Part shown: in pieces, positions 4,805-34,700 of the stretch
How the letters are laid out: the number at the start of each line of letters is the position of its first letter
Numbering within the stretch: the stretch's first letter is position 1
DNA from: Candidatus Omnitrophota bacterium
GTDB taxonomy: Bacteria > Omnitrophota > Gorgyraeia > Gygaellales > Profunditerraquicolaceae
DNA length: 64,000 nt
Direction of reading: 5' to 3'
Assembly: GCA_016208765.1 (NCBI GenBank)
Contig: JACQXK010000001.1
Location: 192,365-256,364 of the forward strand
Translations under genes and position numbers: made by a program
The notes under the pieces: model-generated
What the model saw: the letters and a program-made list of their open reading frames with translations, nothing else
The model's database searches: none
Told to the model about the DNA's origin: nothing

Positions 4805-5521
4805 ATGAGGGCTAAAATGGTTATGGAAAAAATTATTTTTGCCTGGAGCGGCGGTAAAGATAGCGCCATGGCGCTTTATGAATTGAAAAAGAACAGGGAT
4901 TATGAAATATCAGCATTGCTTACTACGATAACAGAAGATTACAGCAGGATAAGCATGCACGGCGTCCGGGAAATTCTTCTTGAGCAACAGGCAGATTCTT
5001 TAGGTCTGCCTTTGGAGAAAATCTATATTACAAAAAAATCATCTAATGAAGAGTATGAAACTAAGATGAGGGATACGTTGATCCGTTATCAAAGTAACGG
5101 TGTTTTCTCTGTAGCTTTCGGTGATATTTTTCTTGAAGACTTAAAGAAATATCGCGAGGGCAATTTGTTAAAAATAGGCATGAAAGGCATTTTTCCTGTC
5201 TGGAAAAGAAATTCTTTTGAGCTCGCTAATACATTTATTGATTTAGGTTTTAAAGCGGTTATTACTTGTATTGATTCAAAAGTTCTTGATAAGGCTTTTG
5301 CCGGCAGGAATTTTGATAAGCAATTTTTATCAGAACTTCCTCCCAATGTTGACCCCTGCGGAGAGAATGGGGAATTTCATTCATTTGTGTACGAGGGCCC
5401 AATATTTTCAAAGCGAATATTATATGAAAAGGGTGAGGTTGTTTTAAGAGATAACCGGTATTATTTCTGTGATTTGATGCCAGTTGAGAATAAATTGGCT
5501 GTTGGTGCAAACTTGCCCTGA
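4805..5521 (+). CDS. PP-loop ATP pyrophosphatase of the Dph6 / MJ0570-like (diphthine-ammonia-ligase-like) family.
   Basis: N-terminus …KIIFAWSGGKDSAMALYEL contains the SGGKDS PP-loop. Its size (about 235 aa) fits the MJ0570 family. The true start may be Met-5 or Met-7. Confidence 0.65.
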   Translation: MRAKMVMEKIIFAWSGGKDSAMALYELKKNRDYEISALLTTITEDYSRISMHGVREILLEQQADSLGLPLEKIYITKKSSNEEYETKMRDTLIRYQSNGVFSVAFGDIFLEDLKKYREGNLLKIGMKGIFPVWKRNSFELANTFIDLGFKAVITCIDSKVLDKAFAGRNFDKQFLSELPPNVDPCGENGEFHSFVYEGPIFSKRILYEKGEVVLRDNRYYFCDLMPVENKLAVGANLP

Positions 5522-5673: not shown

Positions 5674-6672
5674 ATGAAAAATAAGATTACTGAAATACCG
5701 GTAAGGGGTGAAATTGCCATTTATCAGACTAAAGACAAGAAAGTCCAGCTGGAAGTTAAGCTGGAGCAGGAAATGGTTTGGCTTTCACAAGAGCAGATAG
5801 CGAATCTTTTCAAAACTGAACGAAGCGTTATTACTAAGCATCTCGGCAATATCTTCTGTTCCAATGAATTAGGAGAGAAAAGCAATGTGCATTTTTTGCA
5901 CATTCCCTTTTCGGATAAACCGGTAAAATTTTACAATCTTGATGTGATAATTTCAGTTGGGTACAGGGTTAATTCGTCTCGTGCTACACAGTTTCGTATC
6001 TGGGCTACAAATGTCCTGAAGCGGCATTTGATTGATGGTTATACCATTAATGAGAAACGCTTGAAACAGCAGACCCAAAAACTTGAAGCTTTACAGAAAG
6101 CAGTAAAGCTAATAAGCAGTATGAAGGATCGCAAGCAGCTTGAATATAAGGAAGCCATGGGGCTGCTTGAAGTAATCAGCGATTATAGCTACGCACTTGG
6201 GCTTTTAGATGATTATGATTATAAGCGGCTAAAGATAACCAAAACTTCAAAAGAAGAAAAGTTTATTTTAAGCTACGAATTGGCAATAGAAGCTGTAAAT
6301 AAGCTCAAAGACAGAATTGGTAGTTCAGATCTTTTTGGCACAGAGCGTGATAAATCATTTAAGAGTTCGGTATCTTCAATCTATCAAACGTTTGACAGGA
6401 AAGATTTATATCCAAGCATTGAAGAGAAGGCAGCTAATTTGCTTTATTTCATTGTTAAAAATCATTCTTTTGTTGATGGGAACAAACGAATCGCTGCTTC
6501 AATATTTTTGTGGTTCTTAGAGAATAATGGTATTCTGTATAAAGAAGACGGCTCAAAGCGCATCGCCGATAATGCATTAGTCGCTTTGACTCTGATGATT
6601 GCAGAAAGTAAGCCCAGTGAGCGAGATATTATCGTTACGCTGGTTGTGAATTTGATAAACAGGAATAATTAA
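5674..6672 (+). CDS. RhuM-family protein with a C-terminal Doc-type Fic domain.
   Basis: The N-terminal region matches the RhuM virulence-protein family (…VISVGYRVNSSRATQFRIWATNVLKRHLIDGY…). The C-terminus has HSFVDGNKRIAA, i.e. the Doc-type HxFx(D/N)(A/G)NKR motif rather than the AMPylating GNGR motif. Confidence 0.75.
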   Translation: MKNKITEIPVRGEIAIYQTKDKKVQLEVKLEQEMVWLSQEQIANLFKTERSVITKHLGNIFCSNELGEKSNVHFLHIPFSDKPVKFYNLDVIISVGYRVNSSRATQFRIWATNVLKRHLIDGYTINEKRLKQQTQKLEALQKAVKLISSMKDRKQLEYKEAMGLLEVISDYSYALGLLDDYDYKRLKITKTSKEEKFILSYELAIEAVNKLKDRIGSSDLFGTERDKSFKSSVSSIYQTFDRKDLYPSIEEKAANLLYFIVKNHSFVDGNKRIAASIFLWFLENNGILYKEDGSKRIADNALVALTLMIAESKPSERDIIVTLVVNLINRNN

Positions 6673-6821
6673 AAACAAGTTTTATTAAGGTTATGAGGGA
6701 TAGAATTTTTAATTAGACATAAGTATTGTTTCCCCGGAATTATCAATGCGTTACCATACAAAAATAATTATATTTGTTCCGTAACTTTAATAATTACAGG
6801 TAGTTTAGGAAAGCGTCATAT

Positions 6822-7964
6822 ATGCTGAAAACAGGTTTTTTATTGGGTGCTGGATTTTCTAAATATGGAGGAATGCCACTATCTTGTGATTTTGTTATAC
6901 AAGCCCAAAACATACTGGATAATAGGCTTGAAAGATCATATATACCTTCGCGTGAGCCTAAAAACTTGCAGAGTCTTGTTAGATTTAAAGATTTCGTTTC
7001 AGATGAGAAAGGAAGAGAGATTAACCATATTGAAGAAATCATTAAGTTGTCTGATCAATACCGGCTTACTAAAGATTGGGACAATATTGATAAAGAAGTT
7101 AGAGATGCAATTTATGAGATATTGATTGCAGCGCCTTTTATCATGTATTTAAAAGATAAAAATGAGTTATATAAAATGTTTGATATTTATTTAAGATTTT
7201 TGTTAATTGTTGCAGATTCCGAAGCTATGATTGCAACATTGAATTATGATCCTCTCCTGGAGCTTTTGTTACACACAGCAGCAATGTCAATAACACCGAA
7301 TAGCCAGCTATTTCATAAATTCGCTGAAATTGTTAGTTTTAATTATGGAATTGGAGATTTTTCATACCGACCTTTATGGGGTTCTTCTTCTAATATAGAT
7401 AGAGTAGATATATTATATTTTAAATTGCATGGAGCTACTAATTGGGAAGGTTGTGATCAACACGGATTAACAGAGGTTTGCGATCCACTAAAAACTAGGG
7501 CAATTGGGCGCTGTAGAGAGTGCAACATGCCAGCAAAACCATTTATTATTTATCCAGTTGAGGAAAAGAAATTAAATAGTCAGTTATCAGCATTGTGGGA
7601 TACCGCTTTTGGAGCATTAATGCAAGTGGAACAGATTGTTATAATTGGATGCCGATTCAATGAAACAGACAAAGATATATTTAAAAATGTTAACGAATTA
7701 ATTAGTAACAATAAAAGACTTGTAATTGTTGATCCGCAAGGCAGGCAAATTAAAGAAAGAATTGCCAAGCTAAATGAAAATGTTGTATACATCGATAATG
7801 GGAATGGCGAAGGAGCGGTATTTGAAGATATTTTCTGTGATGGTAAAACAGTAGCAAACGAAAATTTTCAAGAAATCACTAACTTAAGATTACGTAAAGA
7901 TGTGCAATATTTTCGAAACGAACAACCTTCTATGCCTTTTTTTGAAGAACCAGTCGCAACATGA
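6822..7964 (+). CDS. Standalone SIR2-like (SIR2_2/PF13289-type) domain protein; candidate NADase defence effector.
   Basis: N-terminal 'FLLGAGFS' glycine-rich motif typical of the SIR2_2 family, with a downstream 'YFKLHGATNW' histidine motif. 380 aa with no other recognisable domain. Confidence 0.65.
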   Translation: MLKTGFLLGAGFSKYGGMPLSCDFVIQAQNILDNRLERSYIPSREPKNLQSLVRFKDFVSDEKGREINHIEEIIKLSDQYRLTKDWDNIDKEVRDAIYEILIAAPFIMYLKDKNELYKMFDIYLRFLLIVADSEAMIATLNYDPLLELLLHTAAMSITPNSQLFHKFAEIVSFNYGIGDFSYRPLWGSSSNIDRVDILYFKLHGATNWEGCDQHGLTEVCDPLKTRAIGRCRECNMPAKPFIIYPVEEKKLNSQLSALWDTAFGALMQVEQIVIIGCRFNETDKDIFKNVNELISNNKRLVIVDPQGRQIKERIAKLNENVVYIDNGNGEGAVFEDIFCDGKTVANENFQEITNLRLRKDVQYFRNEQPSMPFFEEPVAT

Positions 7965-8203
7965 GCAGTTATCTTAATTGTATTGGTTAGATTGACCAGA
8001 CGGATATGTAGAGTTAGAGGTTTGTTAGTTATTAGATAATAATAAGTTATGAAAAATAAATATAGTATATACATGCGTACCTTTGGATGGCCGTTGGTTA
8101 CAGTGGCTAGGGATGGCACTGGATGTGTTAAAGAGGGTAAATGGCTTGGAGTGAAAGGGTTGCGGGAAAACAAGTCTGAAAACGAAAATCTTATTAATGT
8201 TGT

Positions 8204-8209
8204 ATAATG
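8204..8209 (+). promoter_or_regulatory. Extended -10 element (TGtTATAAT) upstream of the giant NTPase gene, followed by a (GTAAT)x3 micro-repeat.
   Basis: TG at 8201-8202 and TATAAT at 8204-8209; gtaatgtaatgtaatg lies immediately downstream. Assigned by pattern only. Confidence 0.35.
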
Positions 8210-8248
8210 TAATGTAATGTTGACCAGGGAAAATTAAACAAACAATAA

Positions 8249-11200
8249 TTGATAGCTATGCAAGAAGTAAATTGGAACAACTTTAAAGCAAAGTTTAACG
8301 GTAAAGAGCAAAAATCTTTCGAGTGGTTTTGCTATCTCTTGTTTTGTAAAGAATTCAAGAAGAACACCGGAATATCCAGGTATAAAAACCAAGCAGGGAT
8401 AGAAGCCGAGCCTATTGAACATAATGGTCAAATGATAGGGTTTCAGGTGAAATTCTATGAAACAAGGATTAGTGAGAATAAAGACGACATAAAAAAGTCT
8501 ATTGAAACGGCAAAGAGAAAGAATGGCAACCTTAACAAAATCATATTTTATATAAATCAGGAATTCTCAGAAAGTAGCAAAAAAGATAAGAAAGACCCCG
8601 CATACAAAATCGACATAGAAAATTATGCTAAGTTTCTTGGCGTGGAAATAGATTGGAGAAGCAGAAGCTTTTTTGACTCTTCATTTGTCTGTCAGGACAA
8701 TGCCGTAATAGCACAACACTTTTTTGACTTAGGCAAGAGCGCGATTGATTTCTTAAATGAGTTAACTCAGCATACCGAAGCTATCCTAGCGGCAATAAAT
8801 TCAAAAATAAACCTCAGAAATAATGAAATAAAAATAGATACGGCACAGAATATAAAAGTGCTACAAGATGTTCTGAATACTTCTCCCATGGCTATTTTAA
8901 GTGGAGAGGCAGGGGTAGGAAAAACCGCTCTCATCAAAGATTTTTATGACTCAAGCAAAGACAAGGCTCCTTTTTACATCTTTAAAGCTGCCGAATTCTG
9001 CATACCCAACATAAATCAACTTTTCGCCAATTACGGATCATTTACCCTGTCAGATTTCATGAGAGAACACCAAGATTTCCAAGAAAAATACATAGTAATC
9101 GATTCTGCTGAAAAGTTATCTGACATTGAATATAAGGAAGTTTTTCAGGAATTTTTATCCACCCTGCAAATTAACAAATGGAAAGTCATATTTACAACAA
9201 GACATAGCTACTTGGACGATTTAAGATTTCAGTTTATTGAGGTTTACCATGTCCGGTGTCAGCCAGTAAATATCGAAAATCTTACCTCGGCACAACTTGT
9301 CGAGATTTCAAAAAAATATGGTTTTGATCTGCCAAGGAATGACAGGTTGCTTGAGCTTTTGCGAACACCTTTCTATTTAAATGAATATCTACAAAATTAT
9401 GATAGTTTAGGAAACGCAATAAGTTTTTCTGATTTTAAAAATTTGTTGTGGAACAAGCAGATATCCAAAACTTCATATCAGAAGGATAACATACATATAA
9501 AACGGGAAAAATGCTTCCTGGAGATTGCTCATAAGAGGGCTGCTGAGGGCAGCTTTTTTGTAAAGGCTGATGGGTGTGATGATGAAGTTTTACGGGCTCT
9601 TGAGAACGATGAAATTATAAAATATAACTCCAATGCGGGCGGTTACTTTATTACACATGACATTTATGAAGAGTGGGCATTGGATAACATAATTGAAAGA
9701 ACGTTTTTGAATTCAAAAGATTACAGGGATTTCTTAAGGGGGATAGGAAGTTCTTTGCCAGTTCGTCGAGCTTTTCGGAATTGGCTCTCAGAAAAACTAT
9801 ATAATAATGGAAATGAAGTAAAAGCATTTATTGAATTTGCAATCAATGATGATACGATTGAGAGCTATTGGAAGGACGAAATCTACGTATCAATCTTGCT
9901 ATCCGATTACGCAGAGGTCTTTTTTGACATATTCAAAGACAAGCTTTTAGAAAATAACCAAACTCTCCTGGTGAAAATTATTTTTTTGCTGAGAATCGGT
10001 TGTAAAGAGATTGATGAAGACTTGCTTAATATATTTGGTATTCAAAAAACGGCGTGGAGCGCATTGAAAACTATCTTCACGAAACCAAAAGGCCGTGGAT
10101 GGAAATGCACCATCAATTTTATACATGAGCATAAAGGCGCATTGGGATTACAAAGAATGAATATAATCCTCCCCATGCTTGATGATTGGAATAACAAAAA
10201 TAAAGGGGGCGAAACTACAAAGCAAGCGAGCCAGATAGCGTTATATTATTATAACGAACTCACAAAACAACAATATTATCATATCTCTGACCGCAAAGAG
10301 GGGCAATTAATCAGAGTCATTTTGCAAGGCTCATCAGAAATTAAGGATGAGTTGAAAACTATCTTAGATGAAGTTATCTCTAACAAAGCGGTTGATTACA
10401 GGGATAGGTACTACGTTCTTATTAAGCCAATACTAACATCACTTACGGATTCCTTCGAGGTGGTTAAAGCTCTGCCGAATTATGTAATAAGATTAGCAGA
10501 TATTTTTTGGTTCCAAAATCCCAATGAATTAGATGAGGATTATAGATATTCAAGAAGAATGGACATGGAGGATTACTTTTGTATTTCATCAAGGCATAAC
10601 GACTTTTTACCAGCAAGTGCATTCCAAACACCTATATTCCAGCTTTTAAAGATATCTCCCCAAGAGACAACGGACTTTATTTTATCGTTTACCAACAAGA
10701 CGGTTGAATGCTATGCGAAATCTAAGCTTGATGGTGAAATAGAACAGGTAGACGTTTTTGTCGATAATAATAAAGCGATAAAGCAATATATAAGCAACAG
10801 GCTTTGGTGCATGTACCGTGGAACCCAAGTTTCTCCATACCTTCTTGAGTCTATACATATGGCTCTCGAAAAATGGCTTCTGGACGTCGCCAAATCAGCA
10901 TCAAAAGAGGTTATAGAAAGCCGGTGCCTGTATCTTATAAAAAACTCTAAATCTGCTTCAATAACCGCAGTTGTTTCAAGCGTGGTTTTAGCTCAACCGT
11001 CAAAGCTTTTCAATGTTGCAAAAATACTTTTCCAAACAAAACAATTCTTCCTTTACGACACGGCAAGGATGATGCTTGACCAATCACACAAAGGTCAATT
11101 ATTAGGGTTGAGAAATCTCTTTCCTCGTAACTACGATAATGAAATCTATGAAGATGAAAGAATAAAAGCTTGTGATGATAGCCACAGAAAATACGCATTA

Positions 11201-13009
11201 GAGCATTTAGCTCTTAATTATCAGTTATTCAGGACAGAAGAAGAAAGAGAGGATGAGGTTAAAGATAGACAAGAAATCATATGGGCCATATTCGATAAAT
11301 ATTATGCAGAGCTCCCAGACAAATCAACAGAAACGGAATCCGACAAGACATGGAAGCTATATTTGGCAAGAATGGATAGAAGAAAGATGAGTCCAGAAAT
11401 TGAGAAGACAGATGAAGGCACTTTCATTAAATTCAATCCCGAAATCGACGCCGATTTAAAAAAACATAGTGAAGATGCTCTGCAAGAAATTTCCGAGAAG
11501 ATGAAGTATACAGGTTTACGGCTATGGGCAGATAGCAGATTCAGAGGAGAAGAAGAGACCTACAAAAAATATCCTCAGTATGAAACCGAACCAAAACGTG
11601 TAATTACAGAAGCAAAGGAAATATTTGAAGGGCTAAAGACCACAAAAAGGGAAGAATTTTCCCTGTTTAACCGTTCAATACCCGCATATGCTTGCTCTGT
11701 TTTAATGCGTGATTTTTTTGGCAAACTTGATTCAGATGAAAAAGAATTCTGCAAAGAAGTAATTATTGGGTATGCAGCTATACCGTTAATGACAGAACAG
11801 TATATGTACCAGATATCCGATGGCACGGAAGCCGCAATTGCTCTTTTACCCAATCTTCTGGAGCATTTTCAAAAAGATAAGAAAGATATCAAAATGTTGT
11901 TGTTTAGATTGCTGCTCATCCCGTCCCGAGAAATATCAACATTTGTTGCAAGAGGCATTTTGCATAAGTTATGGAAAATCAGTTTTAATGATGCAAACTC
12001 TATGTTTCTAGGATATCTTTTGCTTTCACCCAAATATTATGCGCTTATCGATGAAATACGAGAAGAAAATTACAAAAGAAAAAATCACGGCGATTTAAGA
12101 ACACAGGTTTCTAAAGCATTTGAAGAAAAGTATAGAAAGGAACTTGAGAGGGTTAACAAGAACGGCATTTCTTATGATGAATTAGATGGCTTAGAAAAGA
12201 TAGATTTAGAAATTCTAAAATCGGCGTTTGAGTTATTGCCTTTGGAAACAACTGACAACGATCATAAGAAATTCTTGAGCGCAATCTTTCCCATTTTCGC
12301 AACGAAAATCTTACAGGATGATCGTGAGGACAGAATTGACTATACCCTAAGGCATAGATTCTTAGAAAAATTTGCATATTTTACCTTAAACCTCCCGAAA
12401 AAAGAAATAATGATATATTTGCGACCTTTTATCGATAATTTTCACAACTCAAGAGAAATGTCTGAATTCTTCCAAGAATTTATATTTGTAGAAGATAGGC
12501 TGTCCAAATATGACGAATTCTGGACAATATGGAATGCTTTTTATGAGAAGGTGGCAGATTTATGTAAGAGCAAGAGCAGTTATTATGCAAAAGAAGTCAT
12601 AAGTAGCTATCTCTTAGCAGGGATACCCTGGAATGAAAAAGCAAAAGAATGGCATACGCTAAAAGAACGAGAAAAGATATTCTATAAAAAGGTAGCTGAG
12701 GAAATGGGGCAGCACCCAGCGGTGTTGTATTCCATTTCCAAGGTTCTAAACGGCATCGGAAGCAATTTTATAGAAGACGGATTAACCTGGATAAGCTATA
12801 TCTTAGAAAACAACAAACAGCTAAGCTCGGAAGAATTAGAAACAAATACCATTTTTTACATAGAGACCTTTCTTCGACGATATATTCTAAATAATCGTCT
12901 ACATATTAGGAGGTCACTATTGATTAAGAAGCAACTTATCGTTGTTTTAAATTTCTTGATAGGAAGAGGTTCGATCGTAGGGTATTTATTACGAGATGAT
13001 ATTTTATAA
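8249..13009 (+). CDS. Giant STAND-like P-loop NTPase (1586 aa) with an N-terminal Mrr-like PD-(D/E)xK nuclease-fold domain and a long helical C-terminus; resembles the Avs (antiviral STAND) architecture.
   Basis: N-terminus FEWFCYLLFCKEF…GIEAEP…QMIGFQVKFYE follows the Mrr_cat pattern (FE.L…GID…I.QCK.Y). Walker A is [12 protein letters not shown] near aa 220 and Walker B is KYIVIDSAEKL near aa 280. More than 1200 aa of non-repetitive, helix-rich sequence follows. Confidence 0.6.
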   Translation: MIAMQEVNWNNFKAKFNGKEQKSFEWFCYLLFCKEFKKNTGISRYKNQAGIEAEPIEHNGQMIGFQVKFYETRISENKDDIKKSIETAKRKNGNLNKIIFYINQEFSESSKKDKKDPAYKIDIENYAKFLGVEIDWRSRSFFDSSFVCQDNAVIAQHFFDLGKSAIDFLNELTQHTEAILAAINSKINLRNNEIKIDTAQNIKVLQDVLNTSPMAILSGEAGVGKTALIKDFYDSSKDKAPFYIFKAAEFCIPNINQLFANYGSFTLSDFMREHQDFQEKYIVIDSAEKLSDIEYKEVFQEFLSTLQINKWKVIFTTRHSYLDDLRFQFIEVYHVRCQPVNIENLTSAQLVEISKKYGFDLPRNDRLLELLRTPFYLNEYLQNYDSLGNAISFSDFKNLLWNKQISKTSYQKDNIHIKREKCFLEIAHKRAAEGSFFVKADGCDDEVLRALENDEIIKYNSNAGGYFITHDIYEEWALDNIIERTFLNSKDYRDFLRGIGSSLPVRRAFRNWLSEKLYNNGNEVKAFIEFAINDDTIESYWKDEIYVSILLSDYAEVFFDIFKDKLLENNQTLLVKIIFLLRIGCKEIDEDLLNIFGIQKTAWSALKTIFTKPKGRGWKCTINFIHEHKGALGLQRMNIILPMLDDWNNKNKGGETTKQASQIALYYYNELTKQQYYHISDRKEGQLIRVILQGSSEIKDELKTILDEVISNKAVDYRDRYYVLIKPILTSLTDSFEVVKALPNYVIRLADIFWFQNPNELDEDYRYSRRMDMEDYFCISSRHNDFLPASAFQTPIFQLLKISPQETTDFILSFTNKTVECYAKSKLDGEIEQVDVFVDNNKAIKQYISNRLWCMYRGTQVSPYLLESIHMALEKWLLDVAKSASKEVIESRCLYLIKNSKSASITAVVSSVVLAQPSKLFNVAKILFQTKQFFLYDTARMMLDQSHKGQLLGLRNLFPRNYDNEIYEDERIKACDDSHRKYALEHLALNYQLFRTEEEREDEVKDRQEIIWAIFDKYYAELPDKSTETESDKTWKLYLARMDRRKMSPEIEKTDEGTFIKFNPEIDADLKKHSEDALQEISEKMKYTGLRLWADSRFRGEEETYKKYPQYETEPKRVITEAKEIFEGLKTTKREEFSLFNRSIPAYACSVLMRDFFGKLDSDEKEFCKEVIIGYAAIPLMTEQYMYQISDGTEAAIALLPNLLEHFQKDKKDIKMLLFRLLLIPSREISTFVARGILHKLWKISFNDANSMFLGYLLLSPKYYALIDEIREENYKRKNHGDLRTQVSKAFEEKYRKELERVNKNGISYDELDGLEKIDLEILKSAFELLPLETTDNDHKKFLSAIFPIFATKILQDDREDRIDYTLRHRFLEKFAYFTLNLPKKEIMIYLRPFIDNFHNSREMSEFFQEFIFVEDRLSKYDEFWTIWNAFYEKVADLCKSKSSYYAKEVISSYLLAGIPWNEKAKEWHTLKEREKIFYKKVAEEMGQHPAVLYSISKVLNGIGSNFIEDGLTWISYILENNKQLSSEELETNTIFYIETFLRRYILNNRLHIRRSLLIKKQLIVVLNFLIGRGSIVGYLLRDDIL

Positions 13010-13032
13010 GAAGGATAGCAAGAGGAGGATAT

Positions 13033-13695
13033 ATGCCGTATAAATTATCTACTGAACAAATTCGTGAATTAGTTAACCAGCCAGAAACCGGAATGGGTTA
13101 TCAGTATGTCGAAGCCTCTATGAGTAATTCTTCTATCTTGAAAGGAGTTGTGCTTAATTCAGAAGTTTTTATCCCTGAAGAAAAAATCGAAAAGATTATG
13201 GGTAAGCGATTTATAACCTACTCAGCAGTTCTTAATGAAGCAGAAAGTCCCGGATACATTAGAAAAATCAACGTCATTGGGCGAGATCGATTGCATCTCG
13301 GAGAAACAAAGTATTTTGCAAAATCTGCTGGAGTTCCTGCTTCGCAGGCCGTTATTTCTTTAACAGAAAAAAATCAAATTTTTAAAAGGTTCTCGCCTTA
13401 TAGAAATGATCATCGTATTAATGAAGATGGTAGTTTAAAATTAGGTGCATATGCCACTACAGAAGCCGATGCACGTAATGTTAGAACAGGAATAGATGCA
13501 ACAAATAGGTATGCATTACTGAGTGATGAGCCGGCAATATATGTTTTTACCATTCAACCGCCTGAAAAAACTTCTGTTCGCGTTGGAACAGTTGAACCTG
13601 CAAATGGCAAGCCTGGTGGCGGTGTTGAGGTTTTATTTGAAAACGGCTCTCCCAAAAACACTGTGACTGGACCCAACATAATTCCAGCAAATTAA
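13033..13695 (+). CDS. Hypothetical protein (220 aa) with an N-terminal 'PETGMGYQ' domain.
   Basis: Starts 24 bp after the giant NTPase stop, with GAGGAGG as RBS. Its N-terminal roughly 55 aa are paralogous to the next ORF. No recognised family. Confidence 0.6.
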   Translation: MPYKLSTEQIRELVNQPETGMGYQYVEASMSNSSILKGVVLNSEVFIPEEKIEKIMGKRFITYSAVLNEAESPGYIRKINVIGRDRLHLGETKYFAKSAGVPASQAVISLTEKNQIFKRFSPYRNDHRINEDGSLKLGAYATTEADARNVRTGIDATNRYALLSDEPAIYVFTIQPPEKTSVRVGTVEPANGKPGGGVEVLFENGSPKNTVTGPNIIPAN

Positions 13696-13914
13696 ATGAA
13701 ACTAAAATTAAATAAATACTGGACGGAGCACCTTCTTAAATACCCTGAAACAGGGATGGGGTATCAACGGGTTGATGTCATATTGAAATCTGGCCAGGTA
13801 ATCAAAAATATTGTTGTTTTGAACGCCGAAGACTTGGTGCTTTCTGACGAATATAAAGATTTAAGATTAGATGAAATTAAGGATTTACATGTTCTGATTA
13901 AAGGGAAAAGATAA
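13696..13914 (+). CDS. Hypothetical small protein (72 aa); a standalone paralog of the N-terminal 'PETGMGYQ' domain of the upstream gene.
   Basis: Starts 1 nt after the upstream stop. The alignment KYPETGMGYQRVDVILKSGQVIKNIVVLNAEDLV versus NQPETGMGYQYVEASMSNSSILKGVVLNSEVFI shows clear homology. Confidence 0.55.
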   Translation: MKLKLNKYWTEHLLKYPETGMGYQRVDVILKSGQVIKNIVVLNAEDLVLSDEYKDLRLDEIKDLHVLIKGKR

Positions 13915-14043: not shown

Positions 14044-14361
14044 ATGGTTCTGGAAATTCTATTTGAGGCAGACAAGACAGCTCTAGAGAAACTCATAGAG
14101 AAAAGAGAGCATAAAGAACAGGTAATAGATAGTCAGATAGAAGAATGCGATAAGAAGGTTTTTCATAAATGTACCAAACGATCAGCCAAAAGATACAATA
14201 TGACCCAAACAGCAAGAATTTTAGGAGTTCATCGCGAGACATTATATTACTGGATCAAGAAAGGTTGGCTTAAGCCGAAGCGAGACTACAGGAATTATCC
14301 GGTTTTTACAGTTTTAGACATAGAAGAGCTGATAAAGTGGAAAGATACAATAAAATGTTGA
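14044..14361 (+). CDS. Small HTH DNA-binding protein (Xis/AlpA/MerR-like HTH_17) with a coiled N-terminal half.
   Basis: C-terminal MTQTARILGVHRETLYYWIKKGWLKPKR is a typical excisionase/MerR-type helix-turn-helix. No integrase gene is nearby. Confidence 0.6.
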   Translation: MVLEILFEADKTALEKLIEKREHKEQVIDSQIEECDKKVFHKCTKRSAKRYNMTQTARILGVHRETLYYWIKKGWLKPKRDYRNYPVFTVLDIEELIKWKDTIKC

Positions 14362-14500: not shown

Positions 14501-15724
14501 ATGAAACAAGAAGTTACATCAAAAAAAGTGTTCATTCGCACGCTGGGCTGTCAAATGAACGTCCGGGATTCGGAGGTAATTGGAGGGTTGCTTGCGAGAG
14601 CAGGGTATGAGATTACCGACGATGAACAGCAGGCGGATATTGTGATTTTTAATACCTGTTCTGTGCGTCAGATGGCTGAAGATAGGGTATGGAGCGCGGT
14701 GGGAAATGCTGTAAATAGAGAAAAGCATAGGGACAGTCCCCAAAAAGCGGGGACAGTCCCTATAATTGGTATTACAGGCTGTATGGCAAATAATTACCGG
14801 GAGGCAATTTTTGAGAAAGCGCCGGCTGTTGATTTTGTGGTCGGCACTGCGGATATTGGAAAGCTACCGGAAATCATAAAAGAAATCCAAAAACATAAAG
14901 GCAGCCTCAATGAAAAGAAGATTTATGAAACAGACGCAGAATTTCGCGAGGATGAAATTTATCACACTGGATTCAGGCTTGATAAAGAACATGCGTTTGT
15001 GGTAATCTCGGAGGGATGTGAGAATTTTTGTTCTTATTGTGTGGTGCCTTATGTGCGGGGAAAGTTGCGCTCGCGTGATCCTGAGGATATTTTAAAAGAA
15101 ATAAAAGCAGATGTTGATGCCGGGATTTCTAAGATTACTCTTTTGGGCCAGAATGTGAATGCGTATCATTGGGTAGATAAAAACAGGGACAGTCCCCAAA
15201 AACCGGGGACAGTCCCTGTTTTTACTTTTGATTTTGTAAAGCTCCTGACAATGGTTAATAGAATAAGCGGTTTAAAAGAGTTTACTTTTGTTACCTCACA
15301 CCCCAAGGATACATCAATAGAATTATTTAAGGCAATGGCTGAGTTGGATAAATTAAGAAAATACATGCATCTTCCGGTGCAGTCTGGTTCGGATAGGATC
15401 TTAAAAATGATGAATCGCAGGTATACCAGGGAAAATTATTTAAATTTAGCAAAGAGTTATCGTGAGATTGTCAGGGGTGGTGAGCTTACTACTGATATTA
15501 TTGTGGGTTTTCCCGGTGAGACAGAAAAAGATTTTCAGGATACCTTTGATTTGGTAAAAGAAGCGGAGTTTAATGCTGGTTTTATTTTTAAATATTCACC
15601 TCGGCCGCATACTGAGGCTTTAAAATTGCCTGATGATGTGTCAAGAGAGGAAAAAGAAAGGCGCCACGCCTTAATTTTAGAACTGCAGAAGAAAATATCA
15701 AAGAAGCTAAGAAAGAAAATATGA
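14501..15724 (+). CDS. miaB: tRNA-2-methylthio-N6-dimethylallyladenosine synthase (radical SAM methylthiotransferase). It carries two in-frame 11-aa palindromic-element insertions.
   Basis: VFIRTLGCQMN MTTase N-domain, CxxxCxxC radical-SAM cluster (CENFCSYCVVP) and a C-terminal TRAM region. Insertions 'RDSPQKAGTVP' and 'RDSPQKPGTVP' correspond to the DNA elements at 14729-14761 and 15185-15217. Confidence 0.9.
   Translation: MKQEVTSKKVFIRTLGCQMNVRDSEVIGGLLARAGYEITDDEQQADIVIFNTCSVRQMAEDRVWSAVGNAVNREKHRDSPQKAGTVPIIGITGCMANNYREAIFEKAPAVDFVVGTADIGKLPEIIKEIQKHKGSLNEKKIYETDAEFREDEIYHTGFRLDKEHAFVVISEGCENFCSYCVVPYVRGKLRSRDPEDILKEIKADVDAGISKITLLGQNVNAYHWVDKNRDSPQKPGTVPVFTFDFVKLLTMVNRISGLKEFTFVTSHPKDTSIELFKAMAELDKLRKYMHLPVQSGSDRILKMMNRRYTRENYLNLAKSYREIVRGGELTTDIIVGFPGETEKDFQDTFDLVKEAEFNAGFIFKYSPRPHTEALKLPDDVSREEKERRHALILELQKKISKKLRKKI
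14729..14761. repeat. 33-bp palindromic element AGGGACAGTCCCC-AAAAAGC-GGGGACAGTCCCT, inserted in-frame in miaB.
   Basis: Two copies of the near-palindrome GGGACAGTCCC separated by 7 nt. The same element recurs at 15185-15217 and, in reverse orientation, at 32625-32653 and 32828-32856. Confidence 0.85.
15185..15217. repeat. Second copy of the 33-bp palindromic element (AGGGACAGTCCCC-AAAAACC-GGGGACAGTCCCT), in-frame in miaB.
   Basis: Differs from the first copy by one spacer nucleotide. It is flanked by AAAAC/GTTTT, which extends the palindrome. Confidence 0.85.
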
Positions 15725-16617
15725 GTATTGCTGTTAAAAAGAAAATTATATTTTTAGTAGGGCCTACGGCAGCGGGTAAGTCAGAGATAGCAGTAAGGCT
15801 TGCCAGAAAAATTAACGCCGAAATTATTTCCTGTGATTCTATGCAGATTTATAAAGGAATGGATATTTTAACTGCAAAGCCTGCGCTTGCTTTACTTAGG
15901 AAGATCCCGCATCATTTAATCGGGATGATCGATCCTTCTAAAGAATATAATGTTTCAAGGTATCGCAGGGACGCGTTACGTATAATAAAAGAAATCTTTA
16001 AGAAAAATAAAACACCACTTTTTGTCGGAGGAACCGGGCTTTATATGAGTATTTTGCTTGATGGAATCTTTAAGGCTAAGGGAGAGAGCAAAAAAATAAG
16101 AAAGCAGCTTTTTGAAGAGGCTAAGAGAATCACAAGCCCTGAGTTGCACGATAGGTTAAAGAAAATTGACCCTCAGGCAGCAGAGAAAATTCATCCTAAT
16201 GATACAAGGCGGATTGTGCGCGCTTTGGAAGTTTTCTTGGTTACGGGTAAACCTATTTCAGTTTTACAGAAAGAACGCATTGGGCTTGCAGATGAATATG
16301 ATGTAGAGGTTTATTGCCTTAGTATGCCGCTTGATAAGCTTTATGAAAAGATTAACAAGCGAGTGGATAAAATGTTTAAGCTTGGGTTGGTTAATGAAGT
16401 AAAGAAACTATTAAAAAAGAAACTAAGTAAAACTGCCCAATTTGCCATTGGCATTAGAGAGTTAAAGGGTTATTTTGATGGTGATTGCAGCTTGGAGCAG
16501 GTAAAAGAAATGATCAAGTATAACAGCCGTCAGTACGCTCGTCGGCAATTGACTTGGTTCAGGAAGGATAAGCGGATAAAGTGGGTTGAGGCTGATGCCA
16601 TTACTCAGAAAGGTTAA
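15721..16617 (+). CDS. miaA: tRNA dimethylallyltransferase.
   Basis: P-loop LVGPTAAGKSEIAV and the overall MiaA pattern. It overlaps the miaB stop by 4 nt. Confidence 0.9.
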   Translation: MSIAVKKKIIFLVGPTAAGKSEIAVRLARKINAEIISCDSMQIYKGMDILTAKPALALLRKIPHHLIGMIDPSKEYNVSRYRRDALRIIKEIFKKNKTPLFVGGTGLYMSILLDGIFKAKGESKKIRKQLFEEAKRITSPELHDRLKKIDPQAAEKIHPNDTRRIVRALEVFLVTGKPISVLQKERIGLADEYDVEVYCLSMPLDKLYEKINKRVDKMFKLGLVNEVKKLLKKKLSKTAQFAIGIRELKGYFDGDCSLEQVKEMIKYNSRQYARRQLTWFRKDKRIKWVEADAITQKG

Positions 16618-16624
16618 ATAAACC

Positions 16625-17884
16625 ATGGAGAAAGCGCTATTAGTTACAATAAAATTTAAGCATGTAGAAACAAAGTGGCGTATGCAGGATGTTGCCGAGG
16701 AGATTGAGGAGCTGGCCCAGACTTGCGGCGCAGAAGTTTTGGACAATATTTCCTGTATTTGCGAGAAGCCAACGCCAAATTTTCTTATTGGTAAGGGCAA
16801 AGTTGATGAGATTGCATTGCTTGCTCAGGAGATGGATGCTGATGTTATAATTTTTAGCCATGATTTATCCGGGACACAGCAGAGAAATCTTGAAGGAGTT
16901 ATTAATAAGAAAACCATTGACCGCACGCAGTTGATCCTGGATATTTTCGCGCGTCACGCCAAAAGCCCCGAGGGTAAAATGCAGGTTGCGCTTGCCCAGC
17001 TGCAATATCTTATGCCGCGGCTTATCGGTAAAGGTATAATTTTGTCCCGTCTTGGCGGTGGTATCGGAACGCGCGGCCCGGGTGAACAGAAGCTGGAAGT
17101 TGACCGCCGGAGGATTAGGAAAACAATTGATAATTTAAAAAGTGAACTTAAACAAGTAAGAATCCATCGTAAAACACAGCGCAAGAAAAGAGAAGAAAGG
17201 CAGGTGCCGGTAGTGGCTTTGGTTGGTTATACGAATGCCGGTAAATCCACGCTTTTAAACGCGCTGACTAACGCAGAGCAGGTTGTTTCCGACGGGCTTT
17301 TTACTACGCTTGATACAGTTTCGCGGACATTGCAATTAAGTAGCGGAGAGAATATTATAGTTTCTGATACTGTCGGTTTTTTAAATGAACTGCCGCATCA
17401 TTTGATTGAATCGTTCCAGGCAACATTAGAGGAAGTTGCGCAGGCAGATTTATTGATCCATGTTTTAGATGTAAATCACCCGCGTATTTACGAGCGCAGT
17501 AAGGCAGTTTTTGAGGTGTTAAAACAATTGCATGTGGATCAAAAGCCGATGATTACAGCTCTAAATAAGATTGATCTTTTAGATGATAAGACCTGGCTTG
17601 CAAAGTTAAAGGAAGATTTTGTAAATCCGATTGCAATCTCTGCCAAGTTAAAAGAAAATCTGGGAATTTTATTAGCTGAGATTCAGCAAAATTTTACCGG
17701 TAAAATGGCCTCGGTGGAAATTAAGATTCCGCATAAGCGTATGGATTTGGTGGATTTATTTTACCGTGAAGGCAAGGTAAAAGAAATAAAATATGAACAG
17801 GATGGAATAAAAATTAAGCTAAACCTACCTAAAATCCTCTATGATAAACTCTTGAGCAGTAGAGAGATAGAGGATGTCTGTTAG
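16625..17884 (+). CDS. hflX: Ribosome-rescue GTPase HflX.
   Basis: HflX N-domain (…LQYLMPRL…[11 protein letters not shown]…), G1 motif [14 protein letters not shown] and NKID. Confidence 0.9.
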
Positions 17885-31746: not shown

Positions 31747-34700
31747 ATGACTAAAAGACTCTCTAAACTAATTGCCTTACTTTTAAGCTTTCTACTGCTA
31801 ATAGAGCAAGCAGGCTTTGCAGCTGGTGGTGCCATAGACCTATCAAGCCAATTCTCTAAGCTTGCCTCAGGCATATCTACTACTCTATCATCTGCTACTA
31901 CAGCTACCTTTCGTCCCATACACCTAAGATACCTGGAGTATCTACCTAAAGATAACAGCTTTAAGCTGCTCTTAGATAAAGGTAGCGTAGATACGTCATT
32001 GCGAGGCGCTTCACAGAGTAGGATAACGAAGCAATCTCAAAACCAGATTGCTTCGTCGCTCGTTTCGCTCGCTCCTCGCAATGACGATTTACACACCTTA
32101 CACCCCATATCGCAAGCTGAACTACAAGACCTCCAATCCACCACCCAAGACCTAATGAACTACTTCTACATAGGCCTCACACTACCTAATGATTCCTTCT
32201 GGGTTAACCTAAGACCTGCCCCGTTGATGACCGAAGGTCAATCTACGGGGACTGACTCACCCAACAACATCATAGACTCCTACCTATCTAAAACAGATAT
32301 AGGCAGAATTCTTCTTGAAGCTGATGTACAGCTAAAGAAAGACACCTCAAGCTACACTAACCCAGCTACTCCTATAGGAAAGCAATACTGGAATAAGCTC
32401 TACAAGAAAGCCTCTGATCTCTTTGGAACAGACCAGATTACTATCCCTACCCTAACAAGACCATGGATAGTTCCAGGAGAGATAATCATAAGAGAAAGTC
32501 TGTCACCTGTTGCCAGTGTTGGACAGGAGACAGGTGACAGGAGACAGGCGACACATCCCTCTGCCTACATCTACAAAGCTACCCTTAAAGTAATGCTTGA
32601 AGAAGACTACTTGAAGGGACTGTCCCCGAAGGGGACTGTCCCTGGTTCAACAGACTACTCCTTCACTGATCCGCGCCTTAAAGAACTCAACTCCTACTCT
32701 ACAGAACTAATCAAAGAACTAATCATCCCCAAACTGACTAAAGAGGTAAACTCCTCTAAAAGATACTCTAAGCTAAGACAGGTATACTACTCTCTAATAC
32801 TTGCTCAATGGTTTAAGTCAAGGCAGAAGGGACTGTCCCCGAAGGGAACTGTCCCTGATTTGATTGACTCTAAAAATCTCTCTAACCTAACCTCTAAAAC
32901 TACTTGGGATAAAGCTACCTACTTCAACCAATACCAACAATCCTTCACTAAAGGAGAATACAATACCAAGGAAACAGTCTATACACCTTCTGGACAGGTG
33001 ATCAGGAGTTATATGAGTGGAGGGATTACCTTGATGCAAGGGAGTTTTCCTATTCAGCAAGGGGCTACTTTTGAAAGCCAAGCCGGAAGCCCGATTAAAG
33101 TAGTCCCTGCCAACAGCCCTATTCCAGAAACTCTAAAAAATATCGCAGTAGAAATTAGTTGTTCGGTTTTAAATTCAGACAATTCTACAGTACAGTTAAT
33201 TCCAGAAGTATCATCTGAGAAAATGTATACGCCAGCCAGTTCTTCAGTAGTAAATCACGAAACTAGCGTAGGGCAACTTGTGCTTTTAGAAAAAAGAGAA
33301 TTCCGCTGGCTTCCGGAAGATATTACTAAAGTTGAACAACTGATTCCTGAATTGAAGAAATTTAGCCGAGGCGCAGAGGGTGTTGTGAAGCAGGAGGTAG
33401 CAATCTCACTTTTAGCGGGGCTGATTAGAAAGGAAAACTCAAAATCAATCGCAGCTTTTGAGGATTTAGCTGGACAGATAAAAGAATTTATTGCTCCGAA
33501 ACAAAGGCTTAGCTTAAAGTATGTATCGCTGAAGATTATAAATGCCGCAGCGCAAAATGGAAATCCGGTGGCATTAAAGCTAATCAAGGAATCAACAAGT
33601 GATTTAATAAAAACAATTATTGCGATTGAGCAAAAAGGAGATGTTTATGAAGGGCTTCAAGATATGGTGTTGGATGAGATGCTGGCGTTGTTGATTAGAG
33701 GCGAAAATAACGCATTATTAGAAATAGCAACAGCTTTATCCCAAGGATTAAGGGAAAATCTTCCATCAAGCCAGGATATAAATGAGATCAAGGGAATTCG
33801 TCAGCTCTTTAAACAAGCTCTCAATATGTCAGGTCTTAAGGTAATATTTAAGCTCCGTGAGATCGCAGCAATCCGCGCAACCAATAGTCTCATTCAGGCA
33901 TTGGAGCTTGATACGGAAGACATAATTTACGGTTACTGCGAAGAGCTAAATAAGAAGATGGTGCAGGAAGCAATTGAAAAAGGAGAGCTTCCTCCCGGCT
34001 ATTCTACTAAAAAATATACAGATTCGGCGGATCAGCATCAAAAGGATATCGTAGTAATATTTAATGATAATCAGTCTTTAGGCAGATCAGCCGACAAATT
34101 ACAATTACCTTATTACATTTTTAAATACGGGCTGCCAGAACCATTACCGCAGGAAATTGTAGCTAGAATGCGGCAAGAGATGAATATAGGAAAGCGCAAA
34201 GTGATTGTCGCCGGGTCAGTTGATCGGCAAGAAATAGGCGTTTTAATGGCTGCTTATAATAGTTTATACCGCAATCTCCCTGTAGAACAGCGTCCGTTAT
34301 TAGTTTTGGCTCCTCGGGATATAATCGATTTAGATGATGTGGATTTAAGTCAGCCAGATGCGCCTCTTGTGCTTAAGCAGGGAGAATTGTTAAAATCTTA
34401 TGCCTTAGCCGATGTTTGTATTGTAGGTAGCGATCGTAATATTTTAGAGCCATCAAGCCAGAGAAAATTGGTGTTGTATTTCTCGGGTTATTGGCGCAGC
34501 AATCAGCAAGCGAAAGATATGCTAGTTTCTTCGGGCGGAGCAATAGAGTTTAATCAAGATAATCTCTCTCTAGCGGTAAATAATCCGCAGATAACGCAAG
34601 AATTGGGAGAGAAAGGTTTTAAGATAGTGCAAGAATTCAAAAATAAGATTATTCCACAAACAACGGATATCGCGGCAATCTTCGGATTGTCTTTGTTGAT

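Follow-up and report, generated by a model that had tools for sequence, protein, structure and literature searches.

Two adjoining genes in a 64,000-nucleotide stretch of DNA from a Candidatus Omnitrophota bacterium (contig JACQXK010000001.1; the whole stretch is called the window below) raise a question of function. The first encodes a protein of 220 amino acids (A) and the second a protein of 72 amino acids (B). Both carry the motif PETGMGYQ, and the pair stands directly behind a large gene for a STAND nucleoside triphosphatase (NTPase). What is the pair for, and does it serve the gene in front of it or act on its own? On balance, we favor the view that A and B constitute an autonomous, horizontally mobile toxin–antidote cassette of the toxin–antitoxin (TA), toxin–immunity or abortive-infection kind, with defense against phages as part of the picture; the anti-phage role taken alone is less certain than the toxin–antidote core. 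An earlier note on this DNA overlooked the C-terminal ~120 residues of A, which form a toxin domain with the fold of TNT-type nicotinamide adenine dinucleotide (NAD) glycohydrolases (NADases) and ADP-ribosyltransferases (ARTs). The module probably owes its function to this domain. The pair is laid out as follows.

13033..13695, plus strand: gene A, 220 amino acids, taken from the list of open reading frames (ORFs); N-terminal PETGMGYQ beta-barrel domain, linker and C-terminal TNT-type NADase/ART-fold toxin domain
13696..13914, plus strand: gene B, 72 amino acids; stand-alone PETGMGYQ beta-barrel, probable antitoxin/immunity protein
13023..13028, plus strand: ribosome-binding site of A, AGGAGG, read from the sequence; 4 nt 5' of the ATG and 14 nt 3' of the stop codon of the upstream gene, Avs4
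13693..13698, plus strand: TAA-ATG junction, read from the sequence, with the end of A directly adjoining the start codon of B; translational coupling

The cassette measures about 880 bp. In the window the two genes are in the same frame, with one TAA between them.

Paralogy of B and the N-terminal domain of A

The earlier note had described A and B as tandem paralogs, and each comparison bore this out. BLASTP aligned residues 1–45 of the two proteins with 19/45 identities (42%, E=3e-9), and the similarity is not of the low-complexity kind that would have undone the claim. Comparison by hhalign of a B family profile (37 sequences) with an A family profile (77 sequences) gave a probability of 98.9% (E=1.1e-17, 53 columns). 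PETGMGYQ occupies residues 17–24 in both proteins, and VVLN(S/A)E follows at about residues 39–45. In general form, the invariant loop of the N-terminal domain of A reads PE[TS]GMGYQ. When 58 sequences of the two kinds are aligned together, Leu13, Glu18, Met21, Gly22, Tyr23, Gln24 and Asn43 are invariant.

The AlphaFold2 monomers of A (mean predicted local distance difference test score, pLDDT, 90.2; predicted template modeling score 0.86) and B (pLDDT 92.1) have the element order b1-a1-b2-b3-b4-...-b5 in common. Both models contain a first strand, a helix at residues 7–14, strands at 23–30, 35–41/42 and 45/46–48, and a last strand. In A, the domain consists of helix 7–14, strands 23–30, 35–41 and 45–48, helices 49–57 and 63–69 and strand 76–81. 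The last strand thus comes at residues 76–81 in A, after two additional helices, and at 61–66 in B. Given this same order of elements, B corresponds to the entire N-terminal domain of A (residues ~1–85). The paralogy had been placed in the first ~55 residues of A; the shared sequence is indeed there, but the relationship extends over the whole domain.

13033..13287, plus strand: N-terminal small beta-barrel of A, residues 1–85, paralogous to B
13081..13104, plus strand: PETGMGYQ motif of A, residues 17–24, in the loop joining helix 1 to strand 2
13744..13770, plus strand: PETGMGYQ motif of B plus Arg25, from the column frequencies of 235 B against 265 A sequences

Each copy has its own pattern of conservation. 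Among 265 A sequences, Glu, Met and Gly of the motif are present in 100%, Gln in 99% and Tyr or Phe in 100%. The residue after the motif is hydrophobic or variable in A and basic in B (Arg 82% plus Lys 8%), and Trp9, Asp27 and Gly33 are further conserved residues specific to B among 235 B sequences. Since the N-terminal domains of A and B each keep their own conserved residues across phyla, the duplication is old and both copies have been maintained. These results confirm B as a true paralog, an ancient duplicate of the N-terminal domain of A.

The fold of the small domain is a generic Sm/SH3-like barrel. A homolog search returned 64 matches for B and 106 for A, the latter of ~220 residues and without Pfam annotation. 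One protein identical to B (P0107) is annotated as hypothetical in a metagenome-assembled genome of Ca. Omnitrophica. No model of Pfam, NCBIfam, PADLOC or PHROG was matched by B or by the corresponding domain of A, in line with the earlier proposal that the domain lies outside known families. PADLOC returned nothing significant for A and B (best E-values 0.029 and 0.011), a search of BFVD with the B model gave nothing at E <=0.001, and a PDB sequence search with the A family profile gave chance-level matches to CLIC4 only. A text search of 8 million papers for the string GMGYQ found no occurrence. The small-domain profile matched 3076 clusters at 90% identity, and the best 120 of these are all B-like, 65–71 residues long and without annotation. 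B falls outside the immunity and antitoxin families described so far.

The C-terminal domain of A

13300..13323, plus strand: inter-domain linker of A, residues 90–97; sole AlphaFold2 segment with pLDDT <50, of variable length in the family
13339..13692, plus strand: C-terminal TNT-type NAD(P)+ glycohydrolase/ART-fold domain of A, residues ~103–220
13387..13389, plus strand: codon of invariant Arg119 (FKRFS, first long strand of the C-terminal domain), candidate NAD-binding arginine
13627..13629, plus strand: codon of invariant Glu199 (GGGVEV), candidate catalytic acid, within the region matched by Pfam TNT

Residues ~103–220 of A adopt a split beta-sheet, ART-like fold that can be superposed on TNT-type NADases. 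The closest structural relatives are Tne2, Tse6 and Rhs1CT; the structure 6XTD is the Serratia Rhs1CT NADase (PMC10539506). Lower-ranked matches comprise Scabin, exotoxin A, the diphtheria and pertussis toxins, C3, KptA/Tpt1, DarT, ParT, MbcT and TNT itself. This ranking favors NAD(P)+ hydrolysis as the predicted chemistry.

Profile comparison pointed to the same family at lower scores. The A protein of the window matched Pfam TNT (PF14021) over residues 171–204 with 15.2 bits, below the gathering threshold of 27 (E=0.03). Among 77 A relatives, 46 matched this model at E <=0.1, the best at 2.9e-4 and none reported above threshold; no other family was matched by more than one of the 77. The C-terminal domain is a distant relative of TNT, and not a Pfam TNT member by score.

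In the 77 sequences, Phe117, Arg119, Asp126, Arg128, Thr142, Asp146, Tyr160, Gly195–Gly197 and Glu199 are invariant, a pattern of conservation that points to a maintained active site. Three of these residues lie on predicted strands, Arg119 on 117–121, Thr142 on 139–143 and Glu199 on 198–202. Arg119 may belong to ART strand beta-1, and Arg119, Thr142 and Glu199 would occupy the places of the ART triad R-[ST]-E, whose positions are summarized in PMC13285283. The last triad position is Glu (GGGVE) in the A family versus Gln in TNT, so ADP-ribosyl transfer is also a possible chemistry.

A distant relative of the C-terminal domain, with RYALP and GQAGGGVEV, is encoded on a Rhizobium leguminosarum plasmid (CP050566.1, protein QND24523.1; locus L113, 3572–4288). 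Its N-terminal region is different and without GMGYQ, and there is no B-like gene; the toxin domain is therefore also present outside the cassette. This distant protein was the sole A or B match among the PLSDB plasmids.

Might A then be an interbacterial polymorphic toxin, exported to kill competitors, with the N-terminal domain as a trafficking or adaptor module and B protecting the producer? Tne2, Tse6 and Rhs1CT are all effectors of type VI secretion systems with downstream immunity genes (PMC10539506). Systems of this kind often include immunity genes without a toxin. However, A has only 220 residues, lacks PAAR, Rhs, LXG, WXG, MuF or signal-peptide regions and contains no Pfam delivery domain. 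VgrG, PAAR, Rhs, Hcp and type VII secretion proteins are absent from the 25 most frequent Pfam/PADLOC families among the 129 nearest neighbors of the cassette across phyla, and many hosts, Omnitrophota for example, are not known for type VI secretion. Moreover, this explanation does not account for a "trafficking" domain that the toxin shares with its immunity protein. We regard it as improbable.

Conservation and spread of the cassette

A and B stay together across lineages. Of 68 loci drawn from many phyla, 62 have a B-like ORF directly 3' of A, the gap between the genes in these 62 cassettes running from -23 to +14 nt and mostly from -4 to +6 nt. Among close relatives (A 58–97% identical), B directly follows A in 19/19 loci, a set in which some loci overlap the 68 or are near-duplicates of one another. 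The idea of a functional module is upheld, and the module often lies amid defense genes. A and B share a reading frame in only 18/62 cassettes, which argues for translational coupling and not for readthrough of the stop codon of A into B; readthrough was ruled out on this count.

In one natural fusion (P0231, 317 residues), the N-terminal domain, the TNT domain and a B-like domain are joined in a single chain. Two other candidate fusions, P0106 and P0313, were rejected, both being degraded or deleted copies. In one clade, changes in the three domains go together: the A motif reads PEYGMGYQ, RYALE replaces RYALP in the C-terminal domain, and the B motif is without Tyr (MG[SA][QH]). Such covariation would be expected if both domains of A and B touched one another, and is compatible with this.

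Six A loci are without B (L054, L061, L066, L073, L075 and L088). In all of them the TNT-domain motifs and the GMGYQ loop are intact. No alternative immunity gene was found in these six loci, whose downstream ORFs are mutually unrelated.

An exhaustive search of a 50%-identity library gave 1495 representatives at E <=1e-3 and 257 at E <=1e-30; the profile of 219 positions is that of full-length A, so the numbers count the A family and not small-domain architectures. The family is very patchy, being present in 185 of 185,579 species genomes (~0.1%). Its hosts are Verrucomicrobiota (most numerous), Omnitrophota, Acidobacteriota, Gemmatimonadota and Gammaproteobacteria, together with Bacteroidota, Actinomycetes, Desulfobacterota and Lentisphaerae.

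Genomic neighborhood and relation to Avs4

The 1586-residue protein encoded upstream of A is Avs4 (NCBIfam NF041815, 2127 bits; PADLOC, 2087 bits), here with an Mrr-like N-terminus. A starts 23 nt past its stop codon on the same strand, and no terminator-like site lies between them in the window, where Avs4 and A-B may thus be co-transcribed. The long/short pairing directly behind the STAND gene had suggested a functional module to the earlier note, for example a decoy, sensor or inhibitor. A link to the STAND gene was not supported by comparison with other loci. An Avs4 homolog was found in the flanks of 0/19 related loci (tblastn, E <=1e-5), a few of which have little or no flanking sequence; the 19 include two loci with a 97% identical A and 3–6 kb of upstream DNA (L114 and L121). 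Avs4 accounts for 1/129 nearest neighbors across phyla, and the Avs4 models of NCBIfam and PADLOC span the full 1586-residue protein as a single-gene system. We thus consider it extremely improbable that the pair is an accessory module of Avs4. Given that Avs4 was found beside the cassette in this window only, the cassette is autonomous.

Other genes take the place of Avs4 elsewhere. Upstream of the cassette we found PDC-S39 (DUF7380 plus DUF4209) at L001 and type I restriction-modification genes at the P0105 locus. At L004 a DUF87 gene plus an unknown gene lie upstream and a DRT UG9 reverse transcriptase downstream; at L005, mnmA lies upstream and an Eco57I-type enzyme downstream. The upstream genes are SAVED, TIR, DUF4062, a resolvase and transposases at L006, AbiEi/AbiEii and type I restriction-modification at L109, and type III restriction-modification plus DUF8370/8371 at L111. 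Neighbors vary even between close relatives, both upstream and downstream. All Omnitrophota loci with gene tables sit amid defense genes. Across phyla, ~12 of the 129 nearest neighbors are recognized defense proteins and many are housekeeping proteins, as raw counts with no background rate; these counts are approximate, the locus genes having been called with our own greedy ORF picker, which may produce spurious antisense ORFs at high GC. PADLOC assigned type IIG restriction-modification (5), Avs4 (1), PDC-M49A, PDC-S39, DRT UG9 and mad1/2 among the 129. The homologs are not found mainly in core metabolic operons, an outcome that would have spoken against a defense-type module. The cassette is autonomous and mobile, and is often but not always located in defense islands.

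With several loci amid housekeeping genes, one might suppose that A is a housekeeping or repair enzyme of NAD or ADP-ribose metabolism and that B is the subunit that regulates it. A could then be, for instance, an RNA 2'-phosphotransferase like KptA/Tpt1 or an ADP-ribosyltransferase with a regulatory role. The patchy occurrence in ~0.1% of species genomes, the variable neighborhood with mobile-element genes nearby and the presence of the cassette on viral contigs all speak against such an enzyme, and the best structural matches of A are, by a wide margin, toxins. This explanation is very unlikely.

Several further features of the neighborhood were recorded. In the window, a defense island at 5674–13009 comprises RhuM plus Fic (5674–6672), a SIR2_2/AbiH-like gene (6822–7964) and Avs4 (8249–13009), and A-B closes the island. 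Its flanks are of housekeeping type, with a diphthamide-synthase-like gene at 4805–5521 and miaB/miaA/hflX at 14501–17884. In L114, L115 and L121, two unannotated genes (358 and 334 amino acids) lie directly upstream of the cassette. A 105-residue helix-turn-helix (HTH) protein of MerR/excisionase type (PADLOC mad1-like, E=7e-9) adjoins A-B in four Omnitrophota loci (window, 14044–14361; L109, 9033–9344; L110, 1118–1381; L118, 5663–5968). It lies downstream of the cassette in three of them and directly upstream in L118, with 53–77% identity, and could be a facultative cassette regulator or part of a mobilizing element. A palindromic repeat, GGGACAGTCCCC-N(3-7)-GGGGACAGTCCC, occurs in three copies in the window against 0 expected (14719–14761, 15175–15217 and 32616–32642). 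Two copies lie in frame within the miaB ORF (14501–15724), each adding the peptide RDSPQK[AP]GTVP; the repeat looks like a small mobile element tolerated within coding sequence.

Phage-borne B-like genes

The small domain is also found on viral DNA. In IMG/VR, one viral contig carries the full cassette (L087), and another carries A without B beside a terminase gene (L088). B-like genes of 64–70 codons without A occur on viral contigs L089/L090, L092, L093, L094 and L096; the copy in L091 is truncated. Among the other products of the orphan-B contigs are terminase, portal, major head protein, DNA polymerase, UvsX and DnaB-like proteins.

One phage contig with an orphan B-like gene (IMGVR_UViG_3300005914_000007, 6001–11405; L099, the same contig as L089) encodes two NAD-related proteins on the strand of that gene, namely an NMNAT-like protein 2.7 kb downstream (CTP_transf_like, E=4e-4) and NAMPT 3.6 kb downstream (phrog_448, E=7e-134). 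Both genes belong to NAD+ salvage, and phages use genes of this kind against NAD-depleting immunity. At L107, the orphan B has a KptA/Tpt1 gene 3 kb away.

On three further viral contigs a B-like domain with the motif PE[ST]GMGYQ stands in frame at the start of a longer protein. At L097 (3837–4724) it begins a head maturation protease (phrog_80, E=4e-64), at L104 (5986–7917) a 643-residue His-rich protein following a portal-MuF gene, and at L098 (6001–6938) an unknown protein of >310 residues that runs off the contig end. These three N-termini are either true fusions or the result of lost stop codons.

Proposed mechanism

From these findings we infer the toxicity of A, its NADase chemistry, its neutralization by B, a trigger and an anti-phage role, and propose a putative model. 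A would be an intracellular toxin whose C-terminal domain acts as a TNT-type NAD(P)+ glycohydrolase, and unrestrained A would destroy the NAD(P)+ of the cell. B, made by coupled translation straight after A, would keep A inactive, probably by direct binding. By one route, the structured GMGYQ-R/K loop of B would enter or adjoin the NAD cleft of A; by another, B would pair with the N-terminal barrel of A. Upon phage infection, either the A:B balance would be upset or a phage component would engage the barrels, so that A is freed. The ensuing collapse of NAD(P)+ would abort the infection. Phage B-like genes without A would then be antidote mimics, as DarG-like orphans are for DarTG, the precedent for orphan antitoxins as phage counter-defense (PMC11825919, PMC11481870).

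This mode of action of B is suggested by the basic residue after GMGYQ, the covariation in one clade and the P0231 fusion. In Tsi6, Tni2 and RhsI1, three structurally unrelated immunity proteins of TNT-type NADases, a basic residue on a structured loop reaches into the NADase active site (PMC10539506), and by analogy Arg25 of B may serve as an active-site plug. The order of the genes, toxin and then small protein, is that of toxin–immunity pairs. The evidence fits the earlier guess that the short protein is an inhibitor or decoy.

The loop is also invariant in the N-terminal domain of A, including loci that lack B, and therefore has a role beyond plugging A in trans; the barrel of A may regulate in cis, serve B as a dock or work as a sensor. 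In one extension of the model, the PETGMGYQ barrel would be a self-mimicry regulator. B would control the NADase by competing for, or pairing with, the docking surface of the N-terminal domain of A, and the barrel would also recognize a phage head component and so act as a sensor of capsid assembly. Recognition of a head component would explain the B-like domains on the head protease and the post-portal protein as well as the orphan copies. We hold this extension to be possible, though unlikely. If it is true, phages counter the cassette with packaged decoys, and the cassette is a new TA/defense architecture on a TNT-type NADase effector; we know of no such effector among the described anti-phage systems.

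The same observations bear on a sensor–effector pair, in which B and the N-terminal domain of A would bind a phage product (a head protein, for example) or a small ligand, and B would then activate the NADase by pairing with the N-terminal barrel of A, as a co-activator or adaptor and not as an inhibitor. The polar loop residues Glu18, Tyr23, Gln24 and Asn43 are invariant in A and B alike, as if both bound one ligand, and barrels of the Sm/SH3-like type often bind ligands or oligomerize. The phage B-like domains in frame with the head maturation protease (L097) and with the 643-residue protein after portal-MuF (L104) hint at an affinity for capsid components. Since the loop is kept in the six A proteins without B, this explanation retains a real probability. 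Nevertheless, a lone constitutive NADase toxin normally requires an inhibitor, and the gene order and the coupling match toxin–immunity pairs. An orphan B on a phage is easier to understand as an antidote than as an activator of a host suicide enzyme, and the basic residue specific to B fits the known way of inhibiting NADases (PMC10539506). We judge the sensor–effector pair doubtful, and slightly more so than the self-mimicry extension.

Against the toxin–antidote cassette that we prefer, the following points have to be set. The C-terminal domain of A stays below the Pfam TNT gathering score throughout the family, and its R...T...E pattern resembles that of R-S-E ADP-ribosyltransferases, so that transfer rather than NAD hydrolysis is possible. 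The six A genes without B are odd for an obligate antidote, and the GMGYQ loop is kept invariant in the N-terminal domain of A with these loci included. The covariation is confined to a single clade and amounts to one evolutionary event. Outside Omnitrophota, many nearest neighbors are housekeeping genes, and the association with defense islands is not universal. Finally, the phage evidence consists of ~10 IMG/VR contigs, and a tblastn search of 50,697 GenBank phage records found no homolog of A or B.

If the toxin–antidote reading is true, the cassette represents an undescribed, widespread toxin–antidote or abortive-infection family with ~1500 A clusters (50% identity) and ~3000 small-domain clusters (90%) in at least 8 phyla. 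TNT-type NADases would enter intracellular conflict systems; those known so far are secreted toxins aimed at other bacteria or at hosts. The small barrel would be a new immunity fold, the pair would be a clear case of an antidote derived from its toxin by domain duplication, and the phage B-like genes would be candidate anti-defense proteins.

Comparison with known systems

The TNT-type pairs Tne2-Tni2, Tse6(Tne1)-Tsi6, Serratia Rhs1CT-RhsI1 and M. tuberculosis TNT-IFT come closest to A-B. A shows weak but recurrent similarity to Pfam TNT, and the small gene directly downstream encodes a probable protein inhibitor, as in these pairs. In B, as in Tsi6, Tni2 and RhsI1, a structured loop bears a conserved basic residue (PMC10539506). 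However, each of the TNT-type toxins forms the C-terminal part of a large secreted effector (PAAR, Rhs, CpnT), whereas A is a cytoplasmic-looking protein of 220 residues without a delivery domain. TNT toxins have Gln where A has Glu in GGGVE, and A remains under the Pfam TNT threshold. Tsi6, Tni2, RhsI1 and IFT are unrelated to B in fold and sequence, and only B is paralogous to an N-terminal domain present in the toxin that it accompanies. To our knowledge, an antidote paralogous to a domain of the toxin is unusual.

DarTG, ParST, MbcTA/RES-Xre and CmdTAC resemble the cassette in another way, as two-gene mobile modules in defense islands whose toxin belongs to the ART superfamily or consumes NAD. 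For DarTG the likeness extends to phage orphan antitoxin-like genes that act as counter-defense (PMC11825919, PMC11481870). The antitoxins differ, however, being enzymes (the DarG macrodomain) or proteins of Xre/ParS type in DarTG, ParST, MbcTA and CmdTAC, and none of them duplicates a domain of the toxin. With Avs4, the cassette shares the strand, a distance of 23 nt and one defense island in the window, but no co-occurrence of the two was found elsewhere. A partial analogy is offered by CapRel(SJ46), which has its antitoxin domain in cis, and by HipBST, in which HipS matches the N-terminal subdomain of HipA. A likewise carries an antitoxin-like domain in cis, and its trans partner corresponds to that domain. 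In A-B, however, the cis and trans copies coexist as paralogs, and the toxin chemistry and the folds are unrelated to those of CapRel(SJ46) and HipBST.

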